A DNA stretch of 64,000 nt, taken from positions 256,001 to 320,000 of the forward strand of contig CAVSBO010000004.1 in the NCBI GenBank assembly GCA_963726195.1. Direction: 5' to 3'. The notes below the pieces were generated by a model, which did not search any database, had not been told where the DNA came from, and saw only the letters and a list, made by a program, of their open reading frames with translations. Both the position numbers and the translations under genes were made by a program. Positions 394 through 17,406 of the stretch are shown piece after piece. Origin of the DNA: Candidatus Thorarchaeota archaeon (GTDB taxonomy: Archaea; Asgardarchaeota; Thorarchaeia; Thorarchaeales; Thorarchaeaceae). How positions within the stretch are numbered: the stretch's first letter is position 1; each line of letters begins with the position of its first letter.

Positions 394-783
394 ATGTCTG
401 GCCATTTGGATTCACGCAAAGAGAAGGAATTGATTGAGCTTCTGATGGGCCTCACTGATGTCGCAGACTTGGATGCAATAGCTGTTGTTAGCAAGCAGGG
501 AGTGAAGCTGGCCTACTTCGCTACCGAAGAGTCAGATGTCGATCCTGACCTGATGGCCGCTGTTAGTGCAGCATTGCTGGCAACTGGAGACATGGCAGCA
601 GACAAACTGGCGCTTGATGTTCTCTATGAGGTTATTGTGCACGGAAAGCAGGGCTTCGTTGTGCTTTCAAATGCGGGAGACTTTCTCCTGATGGGGTCTG
701 CGAAGGACCTGACCTCAATGGGACTTGCAGTCCAACAAATGAGGAAGTACGCAAAGGAAGTGGGCGAGCTACTCAAGAAGTAG
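394..783 (+). CDS. Roadblock/LC7 (MglB/LAMTOR-like) domain protein
   Basis: 129 aa; AIAVVSKQG, DPDLMAAVSAALL, EVIVHGKQGFVVL, terminal helix MGLAVQQMRKYAKEV. Confidence 0.9.
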   Translation: MSGHLDSRKEKELIELLMGLTDVADLDAIAVVSKQGVKLAYFATEESDVDPDLMAAVSAALLATGDMAADKLALDVLYEVIVHGKQGFVVLSNAGDFLLMGSAKDLTSMGLAVQQMRKYAKEVGELLKK

Positions 784-882
784 TATTTCGTGCGTTCCAC
801 GTGGAAAGCGAATTGGCAGTGCTTGTTCTTTCCGATAGTCAAATAAGCTCCTCAAGTTCCCGCCCGCAGCGGCGCATCGTCC

Positions 883-2082
883 ATGAAGATAGCAGTCACG
901 CCCCGTGCGGCCAATCTAACATACGCAATCCGTGATATTGTTGTGGCAGCCAAGAAGTACGAGAAGGAAAAAGGGCAGATTCCTCTGTACTTGAACATTG
1001 GAGATCCTATCGCCTACGATTGGCGGACACCCGATTTCATGGTCGAAGCTCTAAGCAAGGCAGCCAAAGATGGTGTTAATGGGTATACTCCATCCGAGGG
1101 TCTTGAGGACTTTAGGAAAGCTGTCGCTGAAAAAGAGAAGAAGATTGGCGGCATTACAATCGACCCTGCTAGGGTTTTGACAACCAACGGTATATCAGAG
1201 GCAATCCAGTTTCTGACAGGAGCACTGGTAAGCCAAGGTTCCGAGTTCTTGCTTCCGGGACCGTCGTACCCGCCGTACATATCATACACCGAGTTCTTTG
1301 GAGGCAAACCTGTCACATATCGCACCATCGAGGAAGAGAACTGGGTTCCCGATCTAGACGATTTACGCAAGAAGGTCAACCAGAAGACTACTGGGATTGT
1401 GGTCATCAACCCAAACAACCCGACGGGAGCTGTTTATGATCAGAAGACGTTGAGTCAGATTGCATCGATTGCAGGTGAATATGGTCTCCCACTCATATCG
1501 GACGAGACCTATGACCGACTGACCTTTGAGAAGAAGCAGACGCCAATGGCCAAGGCGGCGGGCGACGTGCCTGTCATCGGTTTCAATGGAATCAGCAAAG
1601 TGTACTTGGCTCCCGGCTGGAGGATTGGCTATGTCTACTTCTGCGACCAGAAGGGAGAACTTGAGCCGATACGCGATGGAATGTTGCGACAGGCTCGAGT
1701 GAGAATCTGTGCCAACTCAGCGGCTCAAGTCGCTGCCGCTGTTGCTTTGAGAAGCGATGGGAGTCATCTGAAGGATGTGGTCCGAAGGATGAGGGAAAGA
1801 AGAGACCTGATCTGGAAGCGTCTCAATTCAATAGAATCGATCTCCACCACAAAGCCAGACGCCGCGTTCTACATTCTTCCTAAGGTTGACCTGAAAGGCC
1901 GATGGAAGAATGACACGGAGTTTGTTCTGGATGTGCTCAACGAGGCTGGTGTGGTTTTCGTGCCCGGTTCAGGATTCTGTCCAATCTATGGCGCATCGCA
2001 CTTCAGAAGTGTCTTCTTGCCTCCACCTAACGTAATCACGGAAGCCATGGACAGGCTCGAGCGATTCATGACAAAGCGATGA
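883..2082 (+). CDS. PLP-dependent class I/II aminotransferase (alanine/aspartate aminotransferase-like)
   Basis: LNIGDP, INPNNPTG, SDETY, GISKVYLAPGWRIG (PLP lysine), VPGSGF. Confidence 0.93.
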   Translation: MKIAVTPRAANLTYAIRDIVVAAKKYEKEKGQIPLYLNIGDPIAYDWRTPDFMVEALSKAAKDGVNGYTPSEGLEDFRKAVAEKEKKIGGITIDPARVLTTNGISEAIQFLTGALVSQGSEFLLPGPSYPPYISYTEFFGGKPVTYRTIEEENWVPDLDDLRKKVNQKTTGIVVINPNNPTGAVYDQKTLSQIASIAGEYGLPLISDETYDRLTFEKKQTPMAKAAGDVPVIGFNGISKVYLAPGWRIGYVYFCDQKGELEPIRDGMLRQARVRICANSAAQVAAAVALRSDGSHLKDVVRRMRERRDLIWKRLNSIESISTTKPDAAFYILPKVDLKGRWKNDTEFVLDVLNEAGVVFVPGSGFCPIYGASHFRSVFLPPPNVITEAMDRLERFMTKR

Positions 2083-2097
2083 AGCAGGATTCGCAGC

Positions 2098-3876
2098 CTA
2101 GCCTAGCTCTGACAGTCTCGCTTCGAGATATGATGCTAGTTCATTTATGATTGAACGTACCATGACTTGGGCCAATTCCACCCTAGCAAGACCAGCAGGT
2201 CGTTCAGGGACCTTCAGCGCATCGCTCGTCAGGATGCTCTCTAGCTGGATACGTGCTTTCAACGCCCTAGCCTTTGCCGTATCCAAGGAGGCTCGCAGTT
2301 TCGTTCTTAGAGCAGCTTCAGTCGGATTGGTAGTGGCTCCAGCAGTTGGCGTCTGATTGTAAACCGTCTCAATGTCGCGCATCAGGTCAGACAGCTGGTC
2401 TCTTGCTGAAGAGATTGCGGTCGCAAGGTCCCGCTTGGCTTTGCTGTCCCTGTTCGACTCGGCAGTAGCTGTTGCTTCTTCGGTCTTGAGCTTCTTCTCC
2501 TGGCCGGTGAGTATTGACTGCAGTGTTTGGCGCATAGGCTCCAGTTTGGATTTGGCAAATTCATGCATCTCAGCTTGTCTGGATGCTCGTACAGCCTTGA
2601 GAAAGTTTTCATCTCCGAGCAGTCCGTCTATTGTGTCAATGACATCATTCGCCAAGCTGATTCTCGCTTTGGCAATCTCCAGCCTCTTTTCCTGAGTGTC
2701 AGTTCTGGCCTTCTCCAGCGAGGTGCTCAGGCCGTCCACGACTCTTTTCAAGGGCTCTTTCTCGAGTTCGGATTCATCTATAGTGGATTCGAGAAGGCTG
2801 GCCCGCCCATCGGTAACATCAAGGTCGTGAAGAAGCTTCTCGGTTTCCTTGTAGTCTTTCAGGGTCAAAATTGCAGGTCCTGCTTGCAGTGAATATTCAG
2901 TGCCTAACCTGTCAGTGTAGGAGCCCCTAACCATCACCGAGAACTCCTTCACTCCCATGAGTTCCTCAGATGATCGTACGAACGCCTCCATGGAACCTGA
3001 TTGGCCGGCGCCGAGTGAAGCGATATTCTTCTTCTTATCGCCGTACACGAAGGTCAGTCCATCGTCAAGGAGCCATTCCGCACTGAGCTTTGAAGCGGCT
3101 CCTTCTCCTTGGTTGTTGAAGACCGCCTTGACTGAAAATTGCTCGGTGAAGGTCATGTCCACAGGTAGTTGGAGCTGTGTCATAACCTTCGGCATCTTCA
3201 GTTTGCCACGCAGAATCTCCCTTGCCATGTCCAGGCCCCTGTCGATGTACTTGCTAAACTCCTGTGCCGCGGCATCCACGAGGGCCGGCTTCAACTCGGC
3301 TACTGCCGTGGTCTCTGCGCTTGAAAAGGCCTCAATGTCGACACCCTTGATGGCAGCCTCAAGCTGTTGAGGGATTTGACTCAACCGAACGACATCAGTC
3401 GTGGTCATTTTGGAAGCGTTTTGTGCTGCGAAGGTCATTGCCCTTTGATATGCATCGGCCTCGCGCCCTATCATCAGGTAAATCATGCACGCAGCCATGG
3501 CAAGTCCGGTGCCTTTCTTTACACCTGCAGGTTCACCCCACATCAGGTTCTCATCAGCGGCTTTCAAGAGATCAAGAGCCGCTCCTTCGTATGCTCTAAT
3601 CGCTTTGTCAGAATCGGCGAGCTCAGAGTAGAGGTCGCCTGCTGCACACATGTTCAGTGCAGCGCTCTTGAAGCTCTTCGAAGTCCTGTACCGGTCGGCA
3701 GCTTTGACATAGGTCTCAGCCGCCTGCACATAGAGTCTTTCAGCGCCAGCATGGTCACCATTCTGCTCGGACAATTCCGCAGCTTGGGCGAACTTCCTGC
3801 CAGCCTCCGTGAAAGACTGTCTGAGAGACTCCTTCGTAGCCTCCTCGATGATATGTTTGACATCGTCTCTTGACAT
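2098..3876 (-). CDS. SNAP(NSF attachment protein)-like alpha-solenoid + Ig-like (CARDB-type) domain + C-terminal coiled coil
   Basis: N-terminal ~220 aa of TPR-like helices (EAGRKFAQAAEL, AAETYVKAADRY, AACMIYL, LEAAIKGVDIEAF); beta-sandwich FSVKAVFNNQGEGAA...GSYTDRLG; heptad-rich C-terminus. Confidence 0.6.
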   Translation of the reverse strand: MSRDDVKHIIEEATKESLRQSFTEAGRKFAQAAELSEQNGDHAGAERLYVQAAETYVKAADRYRTSKSFKSAALNMCAAGDLYSELADSDKAIRAYEGAALDLLKAADENLMWGEPAGVKKGTGLAMAACMIYLMIGREADAYQRAMTFAAQNASKMTTTDVVRLSQIPQQLEAAIKGVDIEAFSSAETTAVAELKPALVDAAAQEFSKYIDRGLDMAREILRGKLKMPKVMTQLQLPVDMTFTEQFSVKAVFNNQGEGAASKLSAEWLLDDGLTFVYGDKKKNIASLGAGQSGSMEAFVRSSEELMGVKEFSVMVRGSYTDRLGTEYSLQAGPAILTLKDYKETEKLLHDLDVTDGRASLLESTIDESELEKEPLKRVVDGLSTSLEKARTDTQEKRLEIAKARISLANDVIDTIDGLLGDENFLKAVRASRQAEMHEFAKSKLEPMRQTLQSILTGQEKKLKTEEATATAESNRDSKAKRDLATAISSARDQLSDLMRDIETVYNQTPTAGATTNPTEAALRTKLRASLDTAKARALKARIQLESILTSDALKVPERPAGLARVELAQVMVRSIINELASYLEARLSELG

Positions 3877-3976
3877 GGCTTCTTTCTCCTGCAGTGCCTG
3901 TACGCTCCATGGACGAGCTTATTTATCCCTCTTTCGAGAAGCTCGCCAAAGGGGTTCACAATGAGTAGTGTGCCTA

Positions 3977-4267
3977 CTAGTAGACTTCGCGCGGCGACTG
4001 TGTGAGCCTGTCGGGCAGCGTACCGCCGTGGCCCTCGATGACGAGTTCGTATCCTCGCCCTACGCGACCTTTCTTTGCGGTCTGGAAGCCGGCCTTCTCA
4101 ATAGCTCGGGCTCCTCGTTCCGCGGCTCGCCTCTCGATCATGCTCACGCCACCGGGTACGACTAGGATTAACTTCTTCTGAGTGTCATCCAAGGTCAATG
4201 TTACGTCGGTGGTAGGTTGTCCCGTACACTCAAAGAACTGACTGTTTTTGTACTCTAGAATCGTCAT
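3977..4267 (-). CDS. Small single-domain gelsolin/cofilin-fold protein (ProGel-like)
   Basis: 96 aa; VTLTLDDTQKKLILVVPGGVSMIERRAAERGARAI fits the gelsolin strand-strand-long-helix core; ELVIEG near the C-terminus. Confidence 0.6.
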   Translation of the reverse strand: MTILEYKNSQFFECTGQPTTDVTLTLDDTQKKLILVVPGGVSMIERRAAERGARAIEKAGFQTAKKGRVGRGYELVIEGHGGTLPDRLTQSPREVY

Positions 4268-4445: not shown

Positions 4446-4473
4446 CGTGATGAACTCGCAAACGCGCCGATTC

Positions 4474-4746
4474 TCAATCTCTGGGAGGAGGTGGAGGAAC
4501 ATCACCCTTACGCGTATCAATCTTTGTGAGTACCGAGTCGCGTTTCTTCTTGGGTGCGGCGAAGCCGATTATTATGAATACCAGCCCAATGACAGCCGCG
4601 ATTGCTCCAATCATGAAGGTGCTGGAACCTAGCAGCAGATTGCCATTCTGAGCGAGAAGAGCCAAGATTGCACCAACGATCAACAGCAGTACTCCTAGAC
4701 ATATCGGCACTGTGCGCGCATAGCTGCGTTTAGTGAGATAAGCCAT
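4474..4746 (-). CDS. Small two-TM membrane protein with C-terminal polyproline tail
   Basis: Two hydrophobic segments, basic stop-transfer PKKKR, ends DVPPPPPRD. Confidence 0.75.
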   Translation of the reverse strand: MAYLTKRSYARTVPICLGVLLLIVGAILALLAQNGNLLLGSSTFMIGAIAAVIGLVFIIIGFAAPKKKRDSVLTKIDTRKGDVPPPPPRD

Positions 4747-4856: not shown

Positions 4857-5746
4857 TCATGATGTCTGCTTCAATGACACGATAACTGTGCAACCATTGG
4901 ACGAAGTGTTAACCAGAACGTTTGCCCCTGTCGTGTCAGCGACCTTGCTCGCTAGCATTTCATGAAATGCGCAGGGAAAACCGGGGGCAGGCTGACTCCT
5001 CTGCTCCTAAGAGCGTTAGCGATTCTCAGTATCTCGCAGGCACCGGTTTCGACTGTAATCTTGCTCGAACCGGTTAGAGCCAGCTGGCTTTCACGAGAAC
5101 AAGCTTGAATGAAGGATACGAACTGCGTTATCAAATCAGCAGACTTGCCTGATGCAGCCCACCTCTCAATTAAGGCCCTTGCTGCCTGACCGAAAACCTC
5201 CTTCGGATGGTCCGGTCCCAGACTTGAACAATACGCAGCAACTTCGGCAATCAGTACAGAGTGCGCTTCCAAGTCAGTTTGCCAAGCCTCCGCAGGGCTC
5301 AGTGTCTTGACTGTAGGTATCTGTTCAAGTCGCGGAAGACTGAGTGCATAGTCGATTTGCACAGCTTCACGCCGAGCTTGAAGCCTCTCAGGATGCGGAC
5401 TGGCGTCAGTTGTCAGTGAAGAGCTTGAAGCATCCTCCCCTTCTCTGACAAGGTCCTTTTCCTCGTAGTTGGGACAGATGCCGGATTGCTCATATCTTCT
5501 TGCGTACTGCATGAGTCTTCCTGCACACATTGCTACAGAAGATCGGCTGAGACCCTCCAGTCTGATGAAACCGTAGATTACGCCAACAAAATCATCAAGG
5601 CTCAGTTGTGACATGGTCTTCTCGACGATAATCTTCTTTCCCCTGACTACGCGAGCAGCCCACTTTTCGTCCATAACACCAGCTTGCGCCGCATAACTCG
5701 TGTTCGTTATCACGACCAATGGCGAGATGGGATAGAACCCGGCCAT
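4857..5746 (-). CDS. Hypothetical protein with V4R-like C-terminal domain (frameshift at ~4985)
   Basis: ORF 4952..5746; shifting frame in the G5 run gives ...GFPCAFHEMLASKVADTTGANVLVNTSSNGCTVIVSLKQTS*, completing a C..C..C pattern (ACEI, PCAFH, GCTV). Confidence 0.55.
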
Positions 5747-5842: not shown

Positions 5843-8336
5843 TCATGGTCTCTTGGTTTTCACCCGGAGTGTGAGGATGGAATGAGGACCCACCGGCAGC
5901 CGGAATGTATTGGTGTGGAAACCTATTTCGCCCATGTCTCTTTCACACAAGTCCGTGAGATTCACGGATTCGAGCTCATAGAAGAACTTGAGCGTGGCAA
6001 TGCCTTCGGTGCCACCCATTTCATAGAGTCTTAGCACGAATTCTCCGGGATTCCCGGTCGGCTTGAGGCAGGAAAGAGCCAAGTCCATGCCCTGTATCTC
6101 GAGAAATGATGCCTCGTGAGGCAGGCTGCCGCCAGTGCTCTCTTGACAACATGCCATCAGGGGCAGGCGATGTTCAGCGGAGCTCCTCCATACCTTGGCT
6201 TTGTCCCACTTTCCTCGATGAGGAATAATAGAGTAGTGGAAGATGTGTGTCCCAATCTCGCGTGCAGTCTCGGTTTCTATTATCTCATCATCCTTTCCGC
6301 GGGAGAGGTAGTTTACGCTTCTGAGAAGAGTTGCTGAGAGCACGCCATCCGTGAATTCATAATCGTGGAGCCCGATTGCTGAGAAGCAAATTCCAAGGTC
6401 TGGTCCGGCACAGTCCACCCAATCAAGTGCGTGAAAGAGACCACCTTTGTTGCCTGCTTGGGAGGACCCGCTCCGAGGTATGACAAGCCTCTCCTCAGCA
6501 GCAAACTGCGACCCAACGACGACGCTGTTCGTGTAGACATTCAATGGGAAACTCAAGCGCACTCGCCTTTCTTGTCCCTTGAACTCCAATTCGGTCTCAA
6601 AGTCGACTCGGCGTACACCCTCATAGACGGAAATGCGTTGTCTACGAGTGCATCCATCGAAGTCGCCTGAGATTTCTGCGGTGGCCCGAACAGGTCCGGT
6701 TTCAACAATCTGTATCTTGGAAACAGTACGCAGGGACGTCACTTGGGAGTCCTGAAGCGATCGATTCGAAGGAGAGAATTCGTACAGGTCTCCTACGTCC
6801 GTTTCAATCGTGATGTAGTTCCCGCGTTCTCTAAGGAGCTCGTTTTGGCTCGCCTTGTCAAAGAACCTGAAGATGGCGCCGCTGAATTCATCGAACTCAA
6901 GAATGAAATTGCTGGACTCAATCCAGTTCCTCCCAGTTCTTATTGAGGACGCAAATTCAGGAGCCTTCTCGACTGGGACCAGCGAGTAGACTCTATGGCT
7001 TAGTGGCGGCATTCCCGAGGCGACAAAAGCCAGATTCACAAGGGTCGAATCCTCACTTTTCTTTAGAACCTGAAATGGAATACTGCGACCGTCAGGACCT
7101 CGTAGGCTCGAATGCGCCCGAAATATGGTTGGTCAAGTCGACTTCGATTTGTACAAAGTCGTCCCGCGACCATGGCAATGGATTGGTGACTACGAAACTC
7201 AGATTCTCGGACGGTCTCGCGACCTGCGAAACCATTCGGGCAACTGTCTCTTCTAGTAGTTGCTCCGCTTGGGCAACTGCCTGTTGATACCTCTTGATAG
7301 CCTGCTTGAATGGTTCGTCTGCAAGGGCACCCCTGATGATGTTGTGATCTTGGTTGAAAAGCAGAATCCTCCACAGGTTCTCCAGTTGCGGTATTTTCTC
7401 ACGTTCATCGCCAAAGCTCATGTATAGTTCAATGAGGTGAACAAGACTCTCCAGCCTGCGATTCAGAATCTTGAGCTTGGTTCTGGCACTGAGTCCCCCT
7501 TGGTGCATCGAGGCAAACCGGTCGCTGTAAAGACCTCCCTCAATCACTGGCATTCTGGCCTGTACTGTCTTGGTCTTGTCAGTGAACTCGCGTGGAGTCA
7601 CTATTGCCATCCGCATGTCAGGAAAGGTTGAGTTCCACTTGCTGGCGATATCGGCGAGATGAGGTAGGGGCGGGACAAGTTCTCCGCCAGTTGGTATGAG
7701 CAAGTTGTTCGAAACCGCGTGGCTGCTTATTGCTTCAATAATCTTCAGAATCTTGGTGAATGCATCTCTCTGATTCTCAGACAACCACGCAGCACAGTCA
7801 TATCCCTGAGAGAGCCACGTTGCGATTACTTGGCTGCCGTCAGGTGCTTTCCAGATGAACTCGCTCGGCGAGTCATAACCCATGCCCCGCCAGAAGTAGT
7901 ACGAATCCATTCCGCACAATCTAAGGATTTGCGGCATCTGAGAGGGATGTCCAGCCGAATCGATTGCCCACCCTGTACGAACGTCTATCCCAAATTCCTT
8001 TCTGAAGAACTGTGTGCCGTACAGATACTGGCGTACTATCGACTCCCCGTCGGGCAAGACAAAGTCGGGCATTACATAGGTTCCGCCGACAATCTCGACA
8101 CGTCCCTCTAATACACGCTGATGCAGTGTGTCCCAGTAATTCGGAAACAGCTTCTTGAAGCCCTCTAGCAACGTGACTTGGTCCAAACAGAACCTGTGGG
8201 TAGGATTGACTTCGAGGAAATCTAGTACGCTCTTTACATTCCAAGAGCCAATGCTCACATAGTGTTCGTATGTTCGAGACCTGGAATTATCGAAGTGCAA
8301 AAACGGGCACATGTTGAGGATCCAACGGTCGGTCAT
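5843..8336 (-). CDS. GH38 alpha-mannosidase family protein (split by a frameshift at ~7105)
   Basis: HFD, EIVGGTYVMPD, GESIVRQ, GWAIDSAGH..QMPQI, NQDH, NPLPWSR; C-terminal GH38C region (GPVRAT, TLLRS, VLRLYE). Removing one base joins the halves via LRGPDGRSIPFQV. Confidence 0.88.
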
Positions 8337-8649
8337 GCAAGTCACATCTGTCGGCAGGCCATCGTCTGAGTCTCTAGTTAGGAGTCCTGTCACCTTTATG
8401 AGCATTGCCAGTGGTCAAGGGGCGGGCTATTGATGTGACACAGGACCCTTCAATTGACCCACCGATTGGTCTGTTGGGCAAAGAGAGCGGAAAGATCAAC
8501 GAGCAACAGGACCTGGAAGAGACTTGTGCCAACGCTTCACGTGATGATATCCTGGTCGGAGAACGCAGAGGGGTCGTGTCTTCTCTCTTGAGAACTTGCG
8601 TCCTGAAATGCCGAGTGTGCACTACCCCAACTGCAGGTTGTCCGAACAC

Positions 8650-10836
8650 TTACACGTACCCTGTCAGCGCTTCGGCTTTCTGTGGTTGACGTCTGAGAAT
8701 CACCTCAGCTATCTCCTGGAAGCGTTTCAGGTCGTCAGGACTAATGCTTGGTCGTACCTCGTGTAGGGCCTCGTCGAAATGCTTCATTTCGACGGGCTTG
8801 ACTTTCCAGTTGTTCCTGACTGCGGCCATTGCTGCCTCTCTGCACAGACCTTCTATGTCAGCTCCGGAGAATCCGTCTGTGAGGTCTGCCAATCGCTCAA
8901 GGTTCACGTCCTTAGCTAGGGGCATTTTCCTAGTGTGGACCTTGAGGATTTCTAGCCGAGCGGCTCTGTCGGGTGGCGGCACGAAGAGAACGGCGTCAAA
9001 CCTTCCCGGCCTCAGGACAGCGGGGTCAAGCATATCAGCACGGTTAGTGGCGCCGATAACCAACACGTTCTGCAGGGTCTGCATTCCGTCCACCTCTGCT
9101 AGGAACTGGTTAACGATTCTCTGGCTCACGCCCGAGTCATCTCGAGACCCTCTTGCGCTGAGAATCGCGTCAATCTCATCGAAGAACAGTATGCATGGTG
9201 CTACCTGCCGGGCTTTCTTGAAAATCTCGCGAACCGCCTTCTCTGATTCACCTACATACTTGTTGAAGAACTCAGGCCCCTTGACAGCGATGAAGTTCGC
9301 CTCACTCTCTGTTGCCACAGCCTTGGCAAGCAGTGTCTTCCCTGTGCCCGGGGGTCCAAAGAGCATTATGCCCTTGGGAGTTCTGATTCCCATGCCACTG
9401 AAGACCTCAGGGTGTTTGAGTGGCGCCTCGACGGCCTCCCTGAGCTGAGCCTTCACCTTTTCCAAGCCGCCGATGTCGTCCCATCGTACATTCGGCTTTT
9501 CGACCATTACTTCTCTAAGCGCGGATGGTGATACCTCGGTAAGAGCCGTCTCAAAGTCCGCTTGCGTCACAAAGAGACTGTTCAGAACATCAGGAGGAAT
9601 GTCTCCAGTCTCGGGATCAACATGCGGGAGTGCTCTACGCAGAGCCTGCATGGCTGCTTCTCGTGCTAGTGCTGCGAGATCGGCCCCCACGAATCCGTGA
9701 GTAATTGCTGCGAGCTTCTCAAGGTCGAGACCCTGTTCAAGAGGCATAGCCCTTGTATGTATTTGAAGAATCTCAAGGCGACCTTTCTTGTCAGGGACTC
9801 CTAGCACTATTTCTCTGTCAAACCTGCCGGGCCTTCTGAGAGCAGGATCTAAGTCGTCTGGCCGATTGGTCGCACCGATTACTATGACCTGACCACGGGT
9901 CTGTAGACCATCCATTAGTGCCAAGAGCTGAGCCACGACCCTTCTTTCTACTTCCCCTGTCACTTCTGCTCGCTTGGGCGCAATGCTGTCAATCTCATCG
10001 ATGAAGATGATGCTCGGAGCATTCTTTTCTGCGTCGTCAAAGACCTCTCTTAGCTTCTGCTCGGACTCACCATAGAACTTGGACATTATCTCAGGTCCGT
10101 TTATGGTCTTGAACGTCGCTCCTGATTCGTTGGCAACTGCTTTTGCTATCAATGTCTTTCCGGTACCTGGAGGTCCTGTAAGCAATACACCCTTTGGAGG
10201 TGCAATTCCCAAGCGCTTGAACAGCTCGGGTGACTTCATGGGCAGTTCAATCATTTCGCGTATCTTCTGCAGCTCTTTTCCTAAGCCGCCAATATCCTCG
10301 TACGTGACCTGAGGAATGGACACCTCTTCGGGAGCAGCTGGTCCTGTCCGGACTTCGACCTTTGTCTCAGGTGTTACGCGAGCATGCTTGGCCGGAGCGA
10401 CGGTCGTGACTGTGAATTGAAGGCCTTGGCCGATGGATGCAACTAGCAAAGCATCTCCTCTTGTAACGGGCTTGTTGATGATTTGCTGCTTAATGTACTC
10501 CTCAAATCCAGGCTGAAATCTCACAGGCTGGCTTGGAGCCAAGACGATTCGCGATGCTTCGGAGAGGGTTATGGCCGAGACCTCAACCACATCGCCTAGC
10601 TTCACCCCGGCATTGCTTCTGATGAGGCCGTCCATTCTTATCATATCAAGAATCTCATCTTCTTTGAGTGCGGGCCAGCAAACGGCAACGGTTTCCTTGC
10701 TGGCTTTGAGAAGAACGTAGTCACCAGATCTGACTCCGAGTTGATTCCTCACATCACTGTTCAGTCTGACAATGCCTCGGCCTTGATCCCTCGGCATGGC
10801 CGCGGCAACCTTTAAGCTCACTGACTCTCCCGGCAT
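8650..10836 (-). CDS. cdc48: Cdc48/p97/VAT family double AAA+ ATPase
   Basis: N-domain (DQGRGIVRL), two GPPGTGKT Walker A motifs, FIDEID/FFDEID Walker B, ALRRPGRFD/AVLRPGRFD, C-terminal GYV. Confidence 0.97.
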   Translation of the reverse strand: MPGESVSLKVAAAMPRDQGRGIVRLNSDVRNQLGVRSGDYVLLKASKETVAVCWPALKEDEILDMIRMDGLIRSNAGVKLGDVVEVSAITLSEASRIVLAPSQPVRFQPGFEEYIKQQIINKPVTRGDALLVASIGQGLQFTVTTVAPAKHARVTPETKVEVRTGPAAPEEVSIPQVTYEDIGGLGKELQKIREMIELPMKSPELFKRLGIAPPKGVLLTGPPGTGKTLIAKAVANESGATFKTINGPEIMSKFYGESEQKLREVFDDAEKNAPSIIFIDEIDSIAPKRAEVTGEVERRVVAQLLALMDGLQTRGQVIVIGATNRPDDLDPALRRPGRFDREIVLGVPDKKGRLEILQIHTRAMPLEQGLDLEKLAAITHGFVGADLAALAREAAMQALRRALPHVDPETGDIPPDVLNSLFVTQADFETALTEVSPSALREVMVEKPNVRWDDIGGLEKVKAQLREAVEAPLKHPEVFSGMGIRTPKGIMLFGPPGTGKTLLAKAVATESEANFIAVKGPEFFNKYVGESEKAVREIFKKARQVAPCILFFDEIDAILSARGSRDDSGVSQRIVNQFLAEVDGMQTLQNVLVIGATNRADMLDPAVLRPGRFDAVLFVPPPDRAARLEILKVHTRKMPLAKDVNLERLADLTDGFSGADIEGLCREAAMAAVRNNWKVKPVEMKHFDEALHEVRPSISPDDLKRFQEIAEVILRRQPQKAEALTGYV

Positions 10837-10862
10837 TCTTTCCTCTCCTCGCTTCGGTTTTG

Positions 10863-11285
10863 CTACTCTTTTGAGCCAATCTCCTCTTCACTATTAAGAG
10901 TCTTTGGAAGGTGCATCTCCATCACGCCGTTCCTAACGGATGTGTTTGATTTCTTCAAACTCACGTTGTAGGGCAAATCAAACTTGAGTTCTCTGTCGTT
11001 ATCACCGTCAATCTTGACTGTTAGCTGTCGGTTCTTGATGACTGCTCGCGGTCTCGCAGCGTCTGACACTCCGTCGACTGCGATAAGAATGCTGTCTCCT
11101 AAATCGATCATTTCTCCATGATCTTCGTTACTCTCTATCTCGGACTCAAAGCGCTGCTCGTCTGAGCCTTCGTCGTGGTCGTCTGATTCTGCATCTAGAG
11201 AGCTGAAAGGACTCATCCTAAGCATGTCCGACATCATTCTGCCAAACAGCTGGTCCACTATTCTCTTGAAGTCATCATCAATCAT
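10863..11285 (-). CDS. Small heat-shock protein (Hsp20/alpha-crystallin-like)
   Basis: Probable start MIDDDFKRIVDQLF; C-terminal FDLPYNV...SVRNGVMEMHLPK; directly upstream of cdc48, a common archaeal arrangement. Confidence 0.8.
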   Translation of the reverse strand: MIDDDFKRIVDQLFGRMMSDMLRMSPFSSLDAESDDHDEGSDEQRFESEIESNEDHGEMIDLGDSILIAVDGVSDAARPRAVIKNRQLTVKIDGDNDRELKFDLPYNVSLKKSNTSVRNGVMEMHLPKTLNSEEEIGSKE

Positions 11286-11374
11286 AGTTCCCTCATCTCT
11301 TGGTGAGGTCCCGGGCGGCTGTTCACCGCCCTGAGAGTCACGTTCGGGACCTCTGTACAGCTTGGTACAGTGGG

Positions 11375-11422: not shown

Positions 11423-11645
11423 GGTTTATGAACTGCATGCGTGTCTCAAGGGCGGGAGGTACACAGCTCTGAGCTGAATTCTCAGGATGGGCCTTCACGG
11501 TCGGCTTCACACCTCAACTGTCTTGTTCTTGCCAAAACCACGTTACTATTCCATTCCTAGAAACGAGCCGGAAGGAATATGGATATAACAAAACTCAATC
11601 ACTCTGACAGCATACGAAGCAAACACGATTCGGAGGATGTGCGAC

Positions 11646-12554
11646 ATGGTCCGATGCTCTCTATGCGGGCAGGAAGAACTCTGTTTCACCTGTCAATACT
11701 GCAAGGGAGTGTTTTGTGCCGAGCACCGTCTTCCGGAGAGCCACGGATGTCCGAGCCTGCAAAGAGCTCGTGATGATGCTAGGAAGAGGATAGCCGATTC
11801 GTTCAGTGGCGAGTACTTAGAGGAAGAAGAAGACACCGAGGAGAACACGACTTCTGTTCGGGCGCCAGTCATAAGACGGCCTCTAGAAGCTCGTCCAGCG
11901 ACACGGTCGAGGTTTTCATCCCAAGAGAAGAGAGACATTGTCATTGCTTCAGTTCTCGTCAGCTTGGTCGCGTTGTCCATGATAGGGAGTCCTAGCGGAA
12001 TAGTCTCAACGCTGCTCATTCTCCCTAGCATAATCTCCGCTGGGTTGTGGTGGTACCCGACGACGCTTGTCATCATCTTTCTCTCATCATTCATGATACA
12101 CGAGATGGCCCACAAGTTCGTGGCACAGCACTATGGGATGTGGAGCGAGTTCAGGATGCTGCCCTATGGCTACTTCCTGTCAGCCATGGCAATACTGTTC
12201 TCAATTCCTGTGTTTGGTACTGGCGCAGTGTTCACATCGGGATCTACGAGTCCTGACAGGGATGCCAAGTCGACCTTGGCTGGCCCCTTGTCAAACGCTG
12301 TCTTGGCCTCGATATTCACGGTCGTTGGTGTAATTGCATTCCTCTTCACAGGACTGCACTTCCCGTTTAGCTATGTGATACAATATGCAGCAGCTCTGAA
12401 TAGCATGCTCGGTTTGTTCAACCTGATACCATTTCCTCCGTTTGATGGGGCCCGAATCGTGCTATGGAGGAAAGGAGTTTGGGCCGCCATGCTTGTAGCG
12501 CTGTTTGCTTTGCTGATTGCAGACTATTGGTTCATCCCGATGCTCTGGAGTTAA
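11646..12554 (+). CDS. AN1-type zinc finger fused to M50 (site-2) intramembrane metalloprotease
   Basis: CSLC-x6-CQYC-x3-CAEHRLPESHGC; HEMAH; AGPLSN; FNLIPFPPFDG; several TM helices; GGAGG upstream. Confidence 0.9.
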   Translation: MVRCSLCGQEELCFTCQYCKGVFCAEHRLPESHGCPSLQRARDDARKRIADSFSGEYLEEEEDTEENTTSVRAPVIRRPLEARPATRSRFSSQEKRDIVIASVLVSLVALSMIGSPSGIVSTLLILPSIISAGLWWYPTTLVIIFLSSFMIHEMAHKFVAQHYGMWSEFRMLPYGYFLSAMAILFSIPVFGTGAVFTSGSTSPDRDAKSTLAGPLSNAVLASIFTVVGVIAFLFTGLHFPFSYVIQYAAALNSMLGLFNLIPFPPFDGARIVLWRKGVWAAMLVALFALLIADYWFIPMLWS

Positions 12555-12626: not shown

Positions 12627-13178
12627 ATGAGTGACGTGGCCTGTGCATGTGAAACTCATATAAGCGACTCCCATTGCATAAGACTGAGGCGAGCGAAATG
12701 GAATCCGAAAGAAGAGAACGTGCTTCGGCAATTCGACAGTATGAGAACAAGGATTGAAGGACTTCTCGACAACCTTGAGAAAGCGAGTCAATCCTCAAGT
12801 GATTTGGACGAGATCACGAAGGAGCGCGACGAGCTGAAAGCTCAGATGATGCAGATAACCGGAAAGCTTGAGCGGGTCTCGGAACTCTATAGAGAAGCCT
12901 CCACTGAAAAGGATAAGCTCAAAGAAAAAGTGGACGTAAGCGGCCTGCTTGCGATTTACATAACGCTCATTGAGACAGTCTTTGGAGGAAAGCCCCACGC
13001 CCGTGTCCTCTACACTTTACATAACACGAAGAAGGCAATCACTAGGAAGAACCTGGAGTCAAGCACGGGTATTATGTCAACCGCAATCATGAAAGCTATT
13101 CATGATCTCCGGAACTCCAATCTGGTGTCATACGACGAAGACACGCAAGAAGTGAAGCTAATCAAGGACATCTTCTAG
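12627..13178 (+). CDS. Coiled-coil + C-terminal winged-helix protein
   Basis: Heptad region then PHARVLYTL...ITRKNLESSTG...AIHDLRNSNLVSYDE. The true start may be ATG 12698 with a 1-nt indel. Confidence 0.7.
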   Translation: MSDVACACETHISDSHCIRLRRAKWNPKEENVLRQFDSMRTRIEGLLDNLEKASQSSSDLDEITKERDELKAQMMQITGKLERVSELYREASTEKDKLKEKVDVSGLLAIYITLIETVFGGKPHARVLYTLHNTKKAITRKNLESSTGIMSTAIMKAIHDLRNSNLVSYDEDTQEVKLIKDIF

Positions 13179-13226: not shown

Positions 13227-14231
13227 ATGCATTCGAGAATCACTTACAGCCCCGTTCTGAGAAAGTACGTGAAAGCGCACAACTTGGAAGAGAAGCTATA
13301 TTCGATAGTAGATCTACTGGGCACTGATGCTCAAGATGTCATAAGATGGGCGGAGTCGGAAGCCAGCCGCAGGAATCGGGAAGGGTCCGCCCCGGAGAAT
13401 TCGGATCTTGGAAAAGTCATGTTCGAGCTCATAGGGAATGAAGCCGCGGTCAGACTGATTCAGTACAACGAATCGAGAGGTAGATTGACAACTCGGAGTG
13501 AAGTGAGTCTTAGGACAGGACACAGGGCTGACATGCCCTACCTGTATCAGGAGGCGGGATTGAGGCATCCTCAGGAGGCTAGGAATCTCCGCCATAATTT
13601 GTTTCATCGGTCCTTCACCGCCTTGGTCTCACGTATATTTCCAGATGTGACCACAAGTGTGCCTGTCACAGGTGAAGGTTTGACGCCTGACCTCATGGTG
13701 AACCACAGGAATCCTGACTGGACGCTCTGTGTCGAATACAAGGGTTATCGCTCCATGACGCTTCTGAGTGAAGCAGAAATCATCAAGGCCATGCGATATC
13801 AGCAGGCCTACGGTTCTGCATGGCTTGTCACAACAACCATGAAGACAGTTCAGTCTCTCTACGGCAGCAAACTCTCGTCCGAGAAGCTAATTGAGGGCGG
13901 CATTGTCAGACTTGAGCGAATCACGAAGCGGAAGACCTTCACCGACGAACAACGGGAAATCAGGGGCATTGCAAAGAAGGGTCTTTTGCAGCTCGAGAAA
14001 GTGCGCGGCATGAGCCTGCGGTGCGATCTAGTATCTGCAGATGACATGATTGCGTCCTGTCGTCAAGGAACTCCAATCAAGGCCTTGGCGATAACTACTG
14101 GCCTTGAACTGGCTGAGATGCTTGACAAAGAAGGCCTAGGAGAGCAGGCCACACAGATCAGAAGAGTGATGAAGGTGCCAACGGACCTTCTACATAGCGA
14201 CTCGGTGACGTCACTTCGGCTCTTGAGCTGA
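13227..14231 (+). CDS. PD-(D/E)XK restriction-endonuclease-like fold protein
   Basis: TPDLMV...CVEYKG, followed by KAMRY and AWLVTT. Confidence 0.65.
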   Translation: MHSRITYSPVLRKYVKAHNLEEKLYSIVDLLGTDAQDVIRWAESEASRRNREGSAPENSDLGKVMFELIGNEAAVRLIQYNESRGRLTTRSEVSLRTGHRADMPYLYQEAGLRHPQEARNLRHNLFHRSFTALVSRIFPDVTTSVPVTGEGLTPDLMVNHRNPDWTLCVEYKGYRSMTLLSEAEIIKAMRYQQAYGSAWLVTTTMKTVQSLYGSKLSSEKLIEGGIVRLERITKRKTFTDEQREIRGIAKKGLLQLEKVRGMSLRCDLVSADDMIASCRQGTPIKALAITTGLELAEMLDKEGLGEQATQIRRVMKVPTDLLHSDSVTSLRLLS

Positions 14232-14293
14232 GTTCACATATCGTTGCCATCGACCATGCCTGACGAACCATTTGCGCCAAGCTTTATCAGTCT

Positions 14294-14749
14294 GTGGCAG
14301 TCTCAGCTCGCACGTTAACTCTGAAGAAGCTGTTCGTCTTGCCGGAAGCCAGGCATTCAAGACAATTGAGCGCGAAGAGCGTGCCCTCTCATCTTAGGGA
14401 GCTGCTGAAGGACCTATGCACCACATCACCCGTGCTTGGAGCAGCCATCTTCACTGTTGAGGGACTACCTTTTGTTAGCTACTTCAACACGGGCACTGAA
14501 GACGTCACTGTTGCTGCCATGGTTGCCAGTCTTCATTCCACAAGTGTTCAGATGCTCAACGAACTACGACAAGGTTCCCTAAAGTCAATAATCATAGAAG
14601 GCACAGGCGGAAAGACAGTCGTAGTGTCTGTTCCACCTGGGTATGTCTTGGCAGTTATCGCTCCTGATATCGCGCGGACGGGACTTGTGTTCGGCGATGC
14701 TAAACGTGTCGCAAGAGAATGCACCAGACTAATCGAGCAAGTTGGTTGA
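14294..14749 (+). CDS. Roadblock/LC7 domain protein (start may be 14366 or 14381)
   Basis: GAAIFTVEGLP, VAAMVASL, ELRQGSLKSIIIEG, TGLVFGDAKRVA. Confidence 0.9.
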   Translation: MAVSARTLTLKKLFVLPEARHSRQLSAKSVPSHLRELLKDLCTTSPVLGAAIFTVEGLPFVSYFNTGTEDVTVAAMVASLHSTSVQMLNELRQGSLKSIIIEGTGGKTVVVSVPPGYVLAVIAPDIARTGLVFGDAKRVARECTRLIEQVG

Positions 14750-14760
14750 GCGAGTCTCGA

Positions 14761-15595
14761 ATGACAGAATCCTATCCGTTTCAGCACCACCCTTGTTGGT
14801 CGGAGAGTAGAACAGAGCTTTGGGAAAGAATCCACCTTCCGGTAGCGAGAGGCTGTAATGTCAAGTGTGCGTTTTGCGACGGCCTCTCTGCAGTCTCTTG
14901 TCACGTGCAGCGTCCCGGCACTGCAAGTCGAACGATGCCAGCTGAGCGTGCAGTCGAAGTTGCGAAGAGAGAATTGAGTCGGCGAGCAAATCTTCATATA
15001 GTCGCAGTCGCGGGTCCCGGTGAACCTTTGGCTAATGCTGCCACTTTCGAGGTTATGAACAAGCTGAGTCGACAGCTGTCCCAAAGTTCACTTCTGTCTG
15101 AGCACGAACGGAGTCCTTCTGGCAGATAGGGTGAACAAGCTTGTCCGTCTGGGCATTGAGAGCCTGAGCGTCTCCATGAGTACAAGTGAGCCTGCAACTG
15201 CCGCAACAATCTATGAATGGGCCGAACTCTGTGGGACGCGGGTTACTGGAATCGGCATGGGCAAGAGAATCGTGGAGATGCAGCTAGCCGGAATCAGACA
15301 AGCAACAGATGCGGGAATTCACGTGAAGATCAATTCGGTGCTTATCCCCGAAGTGAACGATGAAGACATTGCCACGTTGGCCGAGGACGCGGCCTTCGCG
15401 GGGGCTGAACTTCAGAACATTATTCCACTAGTGCCTTGTGGGACGATGTCGACGTATAGACCGCCAAGTTGCGAGGAACTAGAACAAGCAAGAGCAGGGG
15501 CTCGCAAGCATATCAAGCAGTTCTGCAGTTGCCGTCAGTGCAGGGCAGACGTGGTTGGCATTCCCGGTGCTGACACTTTGATCTGGAGTGGTTAG
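14761..15595 (+). CDS. nifB: NifB-like radical SAM protein (frameshift at ~15081)
   Basis: HPCW, RIHLPVARGCNVKCAFC, QRPG, VAGPGEPLAN, CLSTNG after frame repair, KINSVLIPEVND, NIIPLVP, CRQCRAD. Confidence 0.8.
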
Positions 15596-16422
15596 AGAAC
15601 CACCAAGCATCCAACCTCGACGAGTTTGTTGACCAGAAACCAAATTGCGTTTCTGTCGTACTGCAGAGAATCCATAATGTCCTTGACGCGTCTCGTTCCA
15701 TCACAGACTTTCAGTATATCGTCCACTGGCTCTCCATATTCTCCTCTCAGTTTCTGCAGTGCTGATGGACTGCAGTCTCGCTTGCCGAGCCTATCCGAAT
15801 CTACAAGCTTCTTCTTGAATTCAATCCATCCATACTTCTGCAGAATCGAGACGAGGGCCACAACTTGGGTTTCAGGCAGGTCAATGAGATTCATAATCTC
15901 GCCAATCGTGCGCTTCCCATTGATGTATCCTTCAAGCCTCTCGAGCTGACTGTCAATCACGCCGACCCGGAACGGTATGTGCTGACCTTCCTTTCGACGT
16001 AGTGGAACCAGGTTGACATCGGGTTCGCTATAGGGAAACTCAGTAAGTATGGTCCAAGCAAACTCCCTGAATCGCCTTATGTCTCCTTCGAAGGCCCTGA
16101 TCTTCTCGCCATGTTCCTCTTCGAGGAGCCTGAGAATCTTGACAAGGCGTTCACGATAGGGGGCTTCGTCAGGTACAGGGTCCACGACCAATAGGACGAG
16201 AACAGTCTCTCCCACTTCAATGAGAATATCATAGGCGGCTTTGCGGATTGTTCTAATGGGTGTCTTCGCGAAGATGATGACCGCCGACACAAACCCTGCT
16301 ATCAAGTCGGGATCAACTGTCATCTCTGCATACGGCACGCTCAAGATTGACTCGCCACCTTCAAGGCGAATCAAGGAAACGTACCGGACTTTGGACACAT
16401 CCAGCGGCATTCTTATCAACAC
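15592..16422 (-). CDS. Longin-like domain + two winged-helix repeats (NPRL2/NPRL3-like), paralog A
   Basis: DPDLIAGFVSAVIIF longin signature; LVP...YINGKRTIGEI...LQKYGWI; second repeat CDGTRRVKDI...LVEVGCL. Confidence 0.7.
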   Translation of the reverse strand: MLIRMPLDVSKVRYVSLIRLEGGESILSVPYAEMTVDPDLIAGFVSAVIIFAKTPIRTIRKAAYDILIEVGETVLVLLVVDPVPDEAPYRERLVKILRLLEEEHGEKIRAFEGDIRRFREFAWTILTEFPYSEPDVNLVPLRRKEGQHIPFRVGVIDSQLERLEGYINGKRTIGEIMNLIDLPETQVVALVSILQKYGWIEFKKKLVDSDRLGKRDCSPSALQKLRGEYGEPVDDILKVCDGTRRVKDIMDSLQYDRNAIWFLVNKLVEVGCLVVL

Positions 16423-16452
16423 CCGTTACTAACGCGGACACTGCCGGGAGGT

Positions 16453-16523
16453 GGCGGGAGAGCCGACGCTCTGTTGCAGTTGATATAAGGCTTCTCCTGT
16501 GTAGCAGAGCGGCGCTCTACGCC
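16453..16523 (+). other. Long imperfect inverted repeat / hairpin between the two longin paralogs
   Basis: CGCTCTGTTGCA pairs with TGTAGCAGAGCG (12 bp, 2 G-U), extended by AGAGC/GCTCT and GGCG/CGCC. Confidence 0.5.
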
Positions 16524-16561
16524 CAGAGAGAGACACGAAGTCTGAGTAATGCTGTCCATAA

Positions 16562-17406
16562 TCAGGCCTCAGTGAATCCAAGGACGCCTGCGTCCACAAG
16601 ACTCTTGGCCACGGTCAGCAACACTTCCATGCTGTAGGCAAGGAAAGCTGCCACATCCTTCAAGCTCTTGGTCCCATCGCAGAGCTCCACAAACCGGTTT
16701 ATTTGTTCGCCATATACTCCTACGAGAAACTTGTGAGGGTCGCTGAGCTTAACGAGGCAAGTTTCCTCTGTTATCTTTCTGCCAAAGGTTGTCCAGCCGA
16801 AATGATCGAGAATCGATATGATGGCCACCATGTCTTCTTGAGATAGGCCGGTCGATTGCATTATCCCATTTATCGTTCTCTTTCCGTTGATGAAGCTCAC
16901 AACGGTCTGGATCTCTTGTCAGCCTCGCCGACGCTCCAAGGTATGGGGGCGTACCCCTCGAATGCTGGGTCCGATTTCTTGGACAGTCTGGGGACTAGCT
17001 CCCATTCAAACCTGCTGTATGGATAGGCTCCAAGTATGTGCAAAGCAAACTCTCTGAAAGGTCTGACATCCCCTTTCCAACTCTCGAGCTGAACTCCATA
17101 CTCAGTCTCAAAGCTGTTGATGATGCTCTTCAAGACATCTCTGTAGGGGTCCTCGTCATCAACCCTGTCCAAGATGAGCAGCCCGACCATCTGTTTCCCC
17201 TCTTCGATTAGTACCACGTATCCCTCCTTCACAAACCTCCTCAATTGCCTATTCTCGAAAATGACCACTGCGAGCACGAAACTGGCGACCAAATCAGGGT
17301 CTACGCTCATCTCACGATAGGTGATGCCTATGACGGGTTCGCCACCCTCTTTTCGCACGAGCGAGATGTAGCGTACGTGTTCTTCGTAGCTGTTGGTCGC
17401 ACTCAT
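16562..17406 (-). CDS. Longin-like domain + two winged-helix repeats (NPRL2/NPRL3-like), paralog B (frameshift at ~16914)
   Basis: VRYISLVRKEGG...DPDLVASFVLAVVIF; FINGKRTINGI; CDGTKSLKDV. Collinear with paralog A once ORFs 16897..17406 and 16562..16900 are joined. Confidence 0.7.

Follow-up and report, generated by a model that had tools for sequence, protein, structure and literature searches.

The window analysed in the present work is a 64,000-nucleotide stretch of a Candidatus Thorarchaeota genome (G000:C4:256001-320000), which lies on a 416-kb contig of an assembly of 2.92 Mb in 19 contigs that is 88.9% complete. A first-pass annotation had described positions 394-17406 of this window as a dense neighbourhood of nine eukaryote-like items, namely two Roadblocks, a SNAP-like protein, a gelsolin-fold protein, a polyproline membrane protein, Cdc48, an AN1 finger and two longin-winged-helix paralogs, and had proposed that the clustering may mark one functionally linked membrane-remodelling and proteostasis locus rather than chance adjacency. 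Listing of the open reading frames (ORFs) and scanning with Pfam and NCBIfam recovered all nine items where they had been placed, within a set of 19 genes of which 10 are not eukaryote-like; the genes that had been overlooked include an aminotransferase, a 264-aa protein, a GH38 mannosidase, a small heat-shock protein (sHsp), a coiled-coil protein with a winged helix-turn-helix (wHTH), a 334-aa protein and a radical-SAM enzyme. The identities proposed for the Roadblocks, Cdc48, the gelsolin fold, the polyproline membrane protein, the AN1 finger and the longin paralogs hold up, with the qualification that the second longin gene is frameshifted, while the SNAP label does not. The 17 kb are probably a mosaic of four or five small modules that stand beside ordinary metabolic genes in a slowly rearranging stretch of Thorarchaeota chromosome, and not one system. 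Two of the modules have real comparative support: a 1DGelX-type gelsolin gene followed by the first Roadblock gene, and an sHsp gene followed by cdc48 beside a gene that fuses the AN1 finger to an M50 metalloprotease.

The first module begins at the edge of the window, where bases 1-312 of the plus strand are the 3' end of a gene (G000:C4:255419-256312) that encodes a gelsolin of 297 aa. The term 1DGelX, as used by Akil et al. (2020), denotes a protein in which one ProGel-related gelsolin domain is joined through a linker to a domain X. Residues 3-90 of the 297-aa protein match the Thorarchaeota ProGel structure (PDB 7c2f_B, E 9.5e-16), and they are followed by a Pro/Ala-rich linker and a C-terminal beta-rich domain X that is conserved across Asgard archaea; the protein is designated 1DGelX-type on the basis of this layout and of the match to ProGel. 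The gene ends 81 nucleotides (nt) before the gene for Roadblock/LC7 protein 1 (394-783, plus strand) and on the same strand. Roadblock 1 scores 36.4 bits against a Pfam Robl_LC7 cut-off of 23, and covers positions 4-87 of the 91 in that family (PF03259).

The conservation of this pair extends far beyond the Thorarchaeota. Matches of the 1DGelX type occur in 107 of the 121 Asgard genomes. With the gene as an anchor at 20 distant loci, the next gene downstream, in the same orientation, was found at 11 of them to encode a Roadblock that is orthologous to Roadblock 1 and 33-42% identical to it. Among these 11 are Ca. Odinarchaeum yellowstonii, whose genome is closed, members of families f9, f12 and f24, and Hod-labelled metagenome-assembled genomes (MAGs) (lineage labels such as Baldr, Hod, Frey and Atabey are the NCBI labels of cluster mates, and are approximate). 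Together with the Thorarchaeota, an order-level relative (G025) and Baldr-labelled genomes, the adjacent, co-oriented pair is present in at least eight Asgard families; among the 20 distant loci, a downstream Roadblock was not found beside 1DGelX in Frey-, Atabey-, f6, f7 and f16 genomes. At the Thorarchaeota loci where the pair has been relocated, the two genes have moved together. The pair looks like a two-gene operon, and it is the module with the strongest support. The Thorarchaeota representative of 1DGelX severs actin filaments in vitro (PMC7444086), and Roadblock 1 probably binds or regulates such an actin-severing gelsolin, or connects it to some switch. The literature examined on Thorarchaeota gelsolins (PMC7444086), on Asgard Roadblocks and on the GelX of L. 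ossiferum makes no mention of a pairing of gelsolin with Roadblock.

Two further ideas about the pair found no support. The search for a hidden Roadblock-like half in domain X, with which Roadblock 1 could pair, was negative, as hhalign gave a probability of 0.5% and no PDB sequence match was found; and no link can be drawn to actin or to the two-domain gelsolin (2DGel), as both genes lie together on another contig (C15). There the single actin gene and the 2DGel gene are about 8 kb apart (G000:C15:106925-116768). Two observations in other lineages concern the same genes. In Ca. Atabeyarchaeum, a lineage without a Roadblock beside 1DGelX, an ORF that encodes an AN1 finger by itself is separated from the orthologue of 1DGelX by about 4.4 kb (L128:5554-5670, L129:5468-5617). 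In a Hod/Wukong-labelled MAG (L023:8466-11127), the genes for the Roadblock 1 orthologue, ribosomal protein S26e, a PadR regulator and the SNAP-like/CARDB protein form one same-strand run, with an overlap of 17 nt between the last two.

The presence of a second Roadblock nearby must be evaluated against the number of such genes in the genome. There are 14 Roadblock matches, and when these were placed at random on the real contigs, at least one pair within 14 kb resulted in 58% of trials, so that two Roadblocks in 14 kb are not remarkable in themselves and were rejected as a signal. Six of the 14 lie within 3 kb of a match to a Ras-like GTPase. The genome has 21 Ras-like matches, none of them on this 416-kb contig, and because of this a Ragulator/GATOR1 reading of the locus falls short of a client.

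The second module centres on a Cdc48/p97-type double-ring AAA+ ATPase (8650-10836, minus strand). The protein has an N domain (CDC48_N, 89.8 bits; CDC48_2, 51.4 bits) followed by two AAA modules (AAA x2, 324.6 bits) with their lids (AAA_lid_3 x2), which is the domain composition of Cdc48/p97. A second paralog, 56% identical, is encoded on contig C16, and the possibility that the Baldr-labelled copies are orthologous to the copy in the window rather than to the C16 copy was discarded, as they are equidistant to both and only co-orthology can be asserted. A divergent small heat-shock protein with an alpha-crystallin domain is encoded 26 nt upstream of cdc48 (10863-11288, minus strand). Single sequences of this protein give no match to Pfam HSP20; the profile of its family matches Hsp20 (4rzk_A, E 1e-7) and Hsp16.5 (E 4e-4). 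The longest ORF reaches 11510, and the gene is probably confined to 10863-11288, because the orthologues begin at MIDDDF.

On the opposite strand, at 11637-12554, is the gene for a protein in which an AN1 zinc finger (zf-AN1, 37.3 bits against a cut-off of 27.9, residues 7-42) is fused to a membrane-embedded metalloprotease of the site-2-protease type (Peptidase_M50, 47.4 against 27.2). Its translation contains HEMAH and NLIPFPPFDG, which correspond to the HExxH and NxxPxxxxDG motifs of site-2 proteases. This protein, referred to below as AN1-M50, is found in 75 of the 121 Asgard genomes, and its gene is adjacent to cdc48 at 18-26 Thorarchaeota loci and in three Baldr-labelled genomes (families f15 and f8), in three different orientations. 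The literature searched contains no description of the fusion or of a tie between it and Cdc48. In yeast, the AN1-finger protein Ynl155w (Cuz1) is part of the network of Cdc48 and endoplasmic-reticulum-associated degradation (ERAD; PMC2691004). Since eukaryotic AN1 proteins partner Cdc48, and since the finger is here part of a protease that lies within the membrane, it is plausible by analogy that Cdc48 could be recruited to membrane substrates: the cytosolic finger would bring Cdc48 to the membrane protease, the recruited Cdc48 would pull out and unfold damaged or cleaved membrane proteins, and the small heat-shock protein would hold the clients.

The third group of genes lies between the first two, on the minus strand. 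The largest of its products, a protein of 592 aa (2098-3876), had been read as SNAP-like. Proteins of the alpha/gamma-SNAP (Sec17) family are adaptors of NSF, and membership in the family requires a full-length SNAP domain, consisting of about 280 aa of TPR-like helices and a C-terminal bundle, that scores above the Pfam cut-off. The 592-aa protein reaches 16.8 bits, where the cut-off is 25. A profile of 12 sequences of its family does match alpha-SNAP/Sec17 (E 5e-5 to 2e-3), though only within residues ~11-103, and this match rests on a hairpin unit of ~50-90 residues that is hit repeatedly. The remaining ~490 residues comprise a CARDB-like beta-sandwich with the motif N-x-G-x-G-x-A, for which one orthologue gives a weak CARDB match (E 0.0014), and a coiled coil formed by the C-terminal ~230 residues. 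As judged from its sequence, the protein does not belong to the SNAP family, and its likeness to that family, in the form of N-terminal SNAP/TPR-type hairpins, is confined to a small part of about 90 residues. Relatives of the protein are present in 29 of 41 genomes, and in 8 of the 16 outside the family of the window; the relatives retrieved with it are nearly all labelled Candidatus Thorarchaeota, the closest being isolate OWC5 (80% identity).

The second member of this group is a protein of 96 aa (3977-4267, minus strand) with an invariant C-terminal SPREVY tail. No match to it was found in the PDB by sequence or profile or in Pfam, and it is absent among the PF00626 matches of the genome. 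An AlphaFold2 (AF2) model built from 21 sequences has a pLDDT of 80, and in a Foldseek search the model retrieved Thorarchaeota ProGel (7c2f_B) first (E 3e-3, TM 0.58/0.63), followed by gelsolin domains; an independent alignment against representatives (VIA) likewise placed ProGel first, with a Z of 9.0 and 72 residues superposed at 2.9 Å; behind it came about 18 domains of gelsolin, villin and fragmin and then cofilins. The model thus supports a single-domain gelsolin fold for this protein, and the sequence searches do not support membership in the gelsolin family. The 82 labelled relatives are all named Thorarchaeota or Promethearchaeota, and the gene was not found in the order-level relative G025. 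A second gene of this kind, 56% identical, is located at G000:C3:88407-88694. One relative, P0199, combines an enolase-like N-terminus (Pfam Enolase_N) with the conserved C-terminal half and is probably a chimeric assembly, which accounts for a weak enolase match in the PDB sequence search with the 96-aa protein.

The third member is a protein of 90 aa (4474-4746, minus strand) with two hydrophobic stretches, interpreted as membrane helices, together with a KKKRDSV motif and the C-terminus PPPPPPPD. The tail, in the form PPPPPPP[DN], is present in all eight orthologues aligned, that of the order-level relative included. A search for Pfam Profilin gave zero matches anywhere, the controls included, and is hence uninformative. 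The genes for this transmembrane polyproline (TM-polyPro) protein, the 96-aa protein and the SNAP-like protein are a set specific to the Thorarchaeota, and the adjacency of the 96-aa gene and the SNAP-like gene occurs there only. The set could tie a membrane anchor to a scaffold.

The fourth group occupies the right end of the stretch. It begins on the plus strand with a coiled-coil protein of 183 aa that has a C-terminal wHTH-like region (12627-13178; weak matches to SMC/Rad50 coiled coils and to the MreA family), the gene of which stays with the following genes in the Thorarchaeota and in G025, and continues with a 334-aa protein (13227-14231, plus strand) that has no family match in Pfam or NCBIfam and is specific to the Thorarchaeia, being found in 19 of 121 genomes, all of family f1 or f2. 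The latter may have a PD-(D/E)XK fold, to judge from a D...ExK motif noticed on visual inspection. Next to it is the gene for Roadblock/LC7 protein 2 (14294-14749, plus strand; Robl_LC7 45.7 bits against 23, positions 4-91 of 91), which is convergent with the genes for two proteins that resemble NPRL2 and NPRL3; in G025, too, it adjoins the 334-aa gene and is convergent with an NPRL2-like gene.

The first of these two proteins (276 aa; 15592-16422, minus strand) consists of a longin domain followed by two winged helices. Its AF2 model has a pLDDT of 90 and shows a longin (ββαβββα) with two wHTH domains, which is the domain order of NPRL2/NPRL3 in GATOR1, and the top Foldseek matches are the NPRL2/NPRL3 chains of GATOR1/SEAC and yeast Npr2/3, in full-length alignments (E 1e-7, probability 1.0). 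The TM-scores against Nprl2/3 are low, 0.33-0.41, because the arrangement of the domains differs, and at the level of the sequence profile the best PDB match is NPRL2, with a non-significant E of 0.06 over 67 residues of the winged-helix part. The second protein is a tandem paralog (16562-17406, minus strand), about 40% identical to the first, which is split into ORFs of 169 and 112 aa by a frameshift between 16912 and 16993; its relatives have one ORF of 280-293 aa. The two copies are adjacent in the genomes of the family wherever the contig permits, and the family has been reported "in most Thor MAGs" (Liu et al., bioRxiv 10.1101/2020.10.19.343400).

In a paralog of 650 aa on contig C17 (L093:3331-5283, minus strand), residues 121-252 form an Arf/Roc/Ras-like GTPase domain, to which a complete NPRL2-like module (longin and two wHTH) is joined; the paralog matches the 276-aa protein with a BLASTP E-value of 1e-24. 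Open frames of this type, of about 630-680 aa, are matched in 23 of the 24 genomes of the family and in G025. The fusion argues for a GTPase link of the NPRL2-like family and not for a link to the present locus, and the tandem pair probably forms a longin heterodimer that would act on a small GTPase encoded elsewhere. Beside the fusion gene is a gene of 572 aa (L093:5378-7096, minus strand; region G000:C17:58331-62096) with a weak match to Fuz/Mon1-type longins.

The other genes are for the most part ordinary. Directly after Roadblock 1 is a class I/II pyridoxal-phosphate aminotransferase of housekeeping type (883-2082, plus strand; Aminotran_1_2, E 2.9e-56). A conserved protein of 264 aa (4952-5746, minus strand), for which no family was found in Pfam, NCBIfam or Atlas, is kept at 34 of 36 Thorarchaeota loci, and is adjoined by a GH38 alpha-mannosidase (5843-8405, minus strand) whose N, middle, C and C2 domains are divided between two ORFs. 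A radical-SAM enzyme (14719-15595, plus strand), seen as two half matches to Radical_SAM, follows Roadblock 2, and is missing at this position in G025. A DUF2797 protein and a second radical-SAM enzyme (17449-19397, minus strand) lie upstream of the NPRL2-like pair in the same minus-strand run, and their order is retained in the Thorarchaeota and in G025, as is a gene still further along that run (19542-20999, minus strand), which encodes a protein of 485 aa with a coiled coil, a wHTH at its C-terminus and a match to Snapin/Pallidin that stays below the threshold (E 4.5e-4).

Three single-base frameshifts occur within the 17 kb: in the GH38 gene, where the frames switch at 7105-7107 by 1 nt (relatives have a single ORF of 826-893 aa); in the radical-SAM gene, between 15066 and 15083 (relatives, 271-295 aa); and in the second NPRL2-like gene. 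Because the halves of each gene sit in different frames, they reflect indels rather than in-frame stops, and recoding by selenocysteine or pyrrolysine was rejected. Each of the three is uninterrupted in all relatives that were checked, members of the same genus included, and is broken in this assembly only; the frameshifts are either assembly indels or recent pseudogenes.

Judged from the strand switches at 2082/2098, 11288/11637 and 15595/15592 and from same-strand gaps of up to 244 nt, the 17 kb comprise several transcription units. A genomic island or a recent transfer was rejected in view of the even GC content of the window, 0.48-0.54, together with its collinearity with relatives.

At 41 species-level Thorarchaeota loci, surveyed for the neighbours of the SNAP-like gene, the aminotransferase is kept in 35 of 35, the 96-aa gene in 36 of 38, the TM-polyPro gene in 36 of 36, cdc48 in 26 of 26, the sHsp gene in 20 of 21 and AN1-M50 in 18 of 19, while 1DGelX and Roadblock 1, always together, are kept in 18-19 of 27-28. 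GH38 is kept in about 21 of 30, and where it is lost, in about one third of the loci, the rest is undisturbed. Six genomes of other genera are strictly collinear with the window genome from -8.3 kb to about +29 kb; one genome of another genus, G012, is collinear over the whole window, from -8.3 kb to +64 kb (72 kb), and another Thorarchaeota genome, G022, to at least +48 kb. The collinear stretch also includes an ABC transporter, ThiN, a GNAT gene, T2SS-F and a helicase. Since the entire 72 kb compared is equally conserved, synteny at the level of the family cannot discriminate between related and unrelated neighbours. The first-pass annotation had named a lack of conserved synteny among relatives, along with a lack of interactions, as refuting its proposal; gene order is conserved within the Thorarchaeota, but as a test this has no discriminating power here.

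In the six other genera, an FAD oxidoreductase and a pair of Top6B/Top6A paralogs flank AN1-M50 (L002:6986-12185; L004:5900-13043); neither is at this position in the genus of the window. The inserted Top6B/Top6A pair is divergent, being 36% and 28% identical to the C16 copies of the window genome. Farther along, an Alg14/Alg13-like pair (28467-29455) stands after an FAD/CCG oxidoreductase pair here and before it in G012 and G022, a small local rearrangement (region 25447-29455) within otherwise collinear DNA.

Beyond the family, the stretch comes apart. In G025 it is found as two blocks on two contigs. The first contains the TM-polyPro and SNAP-like genes, the aminotransferase, Roadblock 1 with 1DGelX, and the ABC transporter. 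In the second, the 183-aa and 334-aa genes and Roadblock 2 face a convergent run that is made up of one NPRL2-like gene, DUF2797 and radical SAM; Cdc48 was not found within 6 kb of the second block. The adjacencies also differ in range: that of 1DGelX with Roadblock spans the families named above, that of sHsp and Cdc48 beside AN1-M50 is found in the Thorarchaeota and in Baldr-labelled MAGs, and that of Roadblock 2 with the NPRL2-like pair occurs in the Thorarchaeia only. The phyletic ranges of the parts are unequal as well, from 1DGelX and AN1-M50 (107 and 75 of 121 genomes) through the SNAP-like family to the 334-aa protein of the Thorarchaeia and the 96-aa protein of Thorarchaeota-labelled genomes. 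If these were components of one obligate machine, they should occur in the same genomes, which is not the case. Order that is kept beyond the background collinearity and across distant lineages was found for sub-modules, and not for the 17 kb as a whole.

It is this combination of a collinearity of 72 kb, interleaved housekeeping genes, Top6B/Top6A and FAD insertions, loss of GH38, strand switches and unequal phyletic ranges that makes a mosaic of small modules the probable reading. The modules can be ranked by their support, with 1DGelX-Roadblock 1 first, sHsp-Cdc48/AN1-M50 second, TM-polyPro/96-aa/SNAP-like third, and the coiled-coil-wHTH, 334-aa, Roadblock 2 and NPRL2-like genes fourth.

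Several observations nonetheless weigh against this reading. Within the Thorarchaeota, the core from aminotransferase to AN1-M50 is present at essentially all loci, and the left flank at only about two thirds. At a larger distance, using AN1-M50 as an anchor at 20 non-Thorarchaeota Asgard loci, it was found that Baldr-labelled genomes keep 1DGelX and its Roadblock within 3 kb of AN1-M50 and have Cdc48 adjoining it in two further orientations; that an orthologue of the aminotransferase (51-52%) adjoins it in Ca. Freyarchaeum and in a Hod-labelled MAG; and that Ca. Atabeyarchaeum has an NPRL2-like longin and a homologue of the gene at 21946-22677 within 5 kb of it. In Freyarchaeia, 1DGelX is about 10 kb from AN1-M50. 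A single control anchor, a DEAD/DUF5814 helicase (51851-54472) with 20 matched loci, kept none of its Thorarchaeota neighbours from within about 12 kb. There is thus more deep linkage around AN1-M50 than around the control and more than would be expected for unrelated genes, a difference for which one control is thin evidence.

One alternative is that the stretch is the relic of an ancestral Asgard linkage group, of which each lineage retains another subset, either under weak selection for shared regulation or a chromosomal domain or in the course of slow decay, and without any single machine. The lineages do keep different pairs (the aminotransferase with AN1-M50, 1DGelX-Roadblock with AN1-M50-Cdc48, Roadblock 1 with the SNAP-like gene, and an NPRL2-like gene with AN1-M50), and at the 20 AN1-M50 loci the 45 query genes of the block gave conserved-neighbour matches in six families, compared to two matches for 81 queries from outside the block. 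The control loci contain no gene from within about 12 kb, and two genes that lie 15-16 kb away in the Thorarchaeota (35787-36389 and 36563-37456) appear there, in two families. Against a relic, the comparison depends on that one anchor, several of the matches are to multi-copy families (NPRL2-like longins, FAD/CCG enzymes), and 11 of the 20 AN1-M50 loci retain no neighbour at all. A relic of this kind is unlikely as an account in its own right, and it overlaps with the mosaic of modules rather than competing with it.

The proposal of the first-pass annotation, that Roadblock/longin signalling, actin control, a SNAP-type adaptor and Cdc48 work together at one functionally linked membrane-remodelling and proteostasis locus, survives in its smaller modules and in some of the deep linkage, and as a statement about the whole stretch it is unlikely. 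The very stable order from aminotransferase to AN1-M50 across the Thorarchaeota speaks for it, as does the recurrence of parts of the set close to AN1-M50 in genomes labelled Baldr, Frey, Atabey and Hod when set against the control, and the presence within 5 kb of two genes with a gelsolin fold, a membrane protein with a polyproline tail and a scaffold-like protein. Housekeeping genes in the block are, however, equally conserved, unrelated genes have been inserted in other genera, at least four strand switches or units can be counted, the parts have unequal ranges, and the halves lie apart in the order-level relative, with Cdc48 not near the second half. The contig moreover encodes no GTPase, the SNAP likeness covers only about 90 residues, and most genes for Asgard eukaryotic signature proteins (ESPs) are outside conserved neighbourhoods (Liu et al., bioRxiv 10.1101/2020.10.19.343400).

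A more ambitious reading would be that an ancestral linkage group of the Asgard archaea is preserved here because its genes are controlled together. In it, actin regulation (1DGelX-Roadblock, the cryptic gelsolin-fold protein and the polyproline anchor), extraction by Cdc48 and the AN1/site-2 protease, and the NPRL2/3-like pair would serve one membrane-proximal process, with the aminotransferase as a possible amino-acid input. This is quite unlikely, and would, if true, be a prokaryotic forerunner of a system in which the cytoskeleton is coupled to the quality control of membranes and to nutrient signalling. Pure chance and phylogenetic inertia, with adjacencies that have no functional meaning apart from the tandem duplication, would agree with the frequency of Roadblock pairs in random placements and with the family-wide collinearity that accounts for conservation within the Thorarchaeota, and are very improbable, because an orthologous, co-oriented 1DGelX-Roadblock adjacency in at least eight Asgard families and an AN1-M50/Cdc48 adjacency that survives three rearranged orientations would both be very unlikely without selection.

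What the stretch offers is three concrete pairings, namely 1DGelX with Roadblock, Cdc48 with the AN1/site-2-protease fusion and the sHsp, and the tandem NPRL2/3-like pair, a paralog of which is fused to a small GTPase, all of which are open to in vitro tests with existing assays. It also carries the caution that synteny at the family level in the Thorarchaeota is too high to serve as evidence of function.

Conserved ESP neighbourhoods in Asgard genomes have been described by Liu et al. (bioRxiv 10.1101/2020.10.19.343400), among them an ESCRT-ubiquitin cluster and an operon of a LAMTOR1-like Roadblock, a Rab-like GTPase and DENN. The present stretch resembles these in that eukaryote-like genes, including a Roadblock, stand beside a functional partner; it differs in that there is no GTPase or DENN gene, in that the partners are a 1DGelX gelsolin and, apart from it, Cdc48 with AN1-M50, and in that the 17 kb as a whole are no operon. 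The NPRL2/3-like proteins share with NPRL2 and NPRL3 of GATOR1 the succession of longin and winged-helix domains and the existence of two paralogs that could pair likewise, but the intact copy is of 276 aa compared to 380-570, and no DEPDC5-like or Rag gene is nearby. The 592-aa protein has at its N-terminus two to three helical hairpins of the type found in alpha/gamma-SNAP, and unlike these it lacks a full SNAP domain, contains a beta-sandwich and a coiled coil, and is twice as long.

The gelsolins can be compared with the Thorarchaeota 1DGelX, ProGel and 2DGel proteins (Akil et al. 2020, PMC7444086). The gene that ends at base 312 encodes the 1DGelX layout, in a gene context with a Roadblock of which that work gives no account, and the 96-aa protein appears from its model to share the fold of ProGel, while differing in its own invariant SPREVY tail and in having no detectable sequence similarity to ProGel or to Pfam Gelsolin. 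With the site-2 proteases of the RseP/S2P family, AN1-M50 has in common the HExxH and NxxPxxxxDG motifs in its M50 domain, and with yeast Cuz1/Ynl155w (PMC2691004) an AN1 finger, here encoded beside Cdc48; in place of the ubiquitin-like domain of the yeast protein, the finger is joined here to the intramembrane protease itself.

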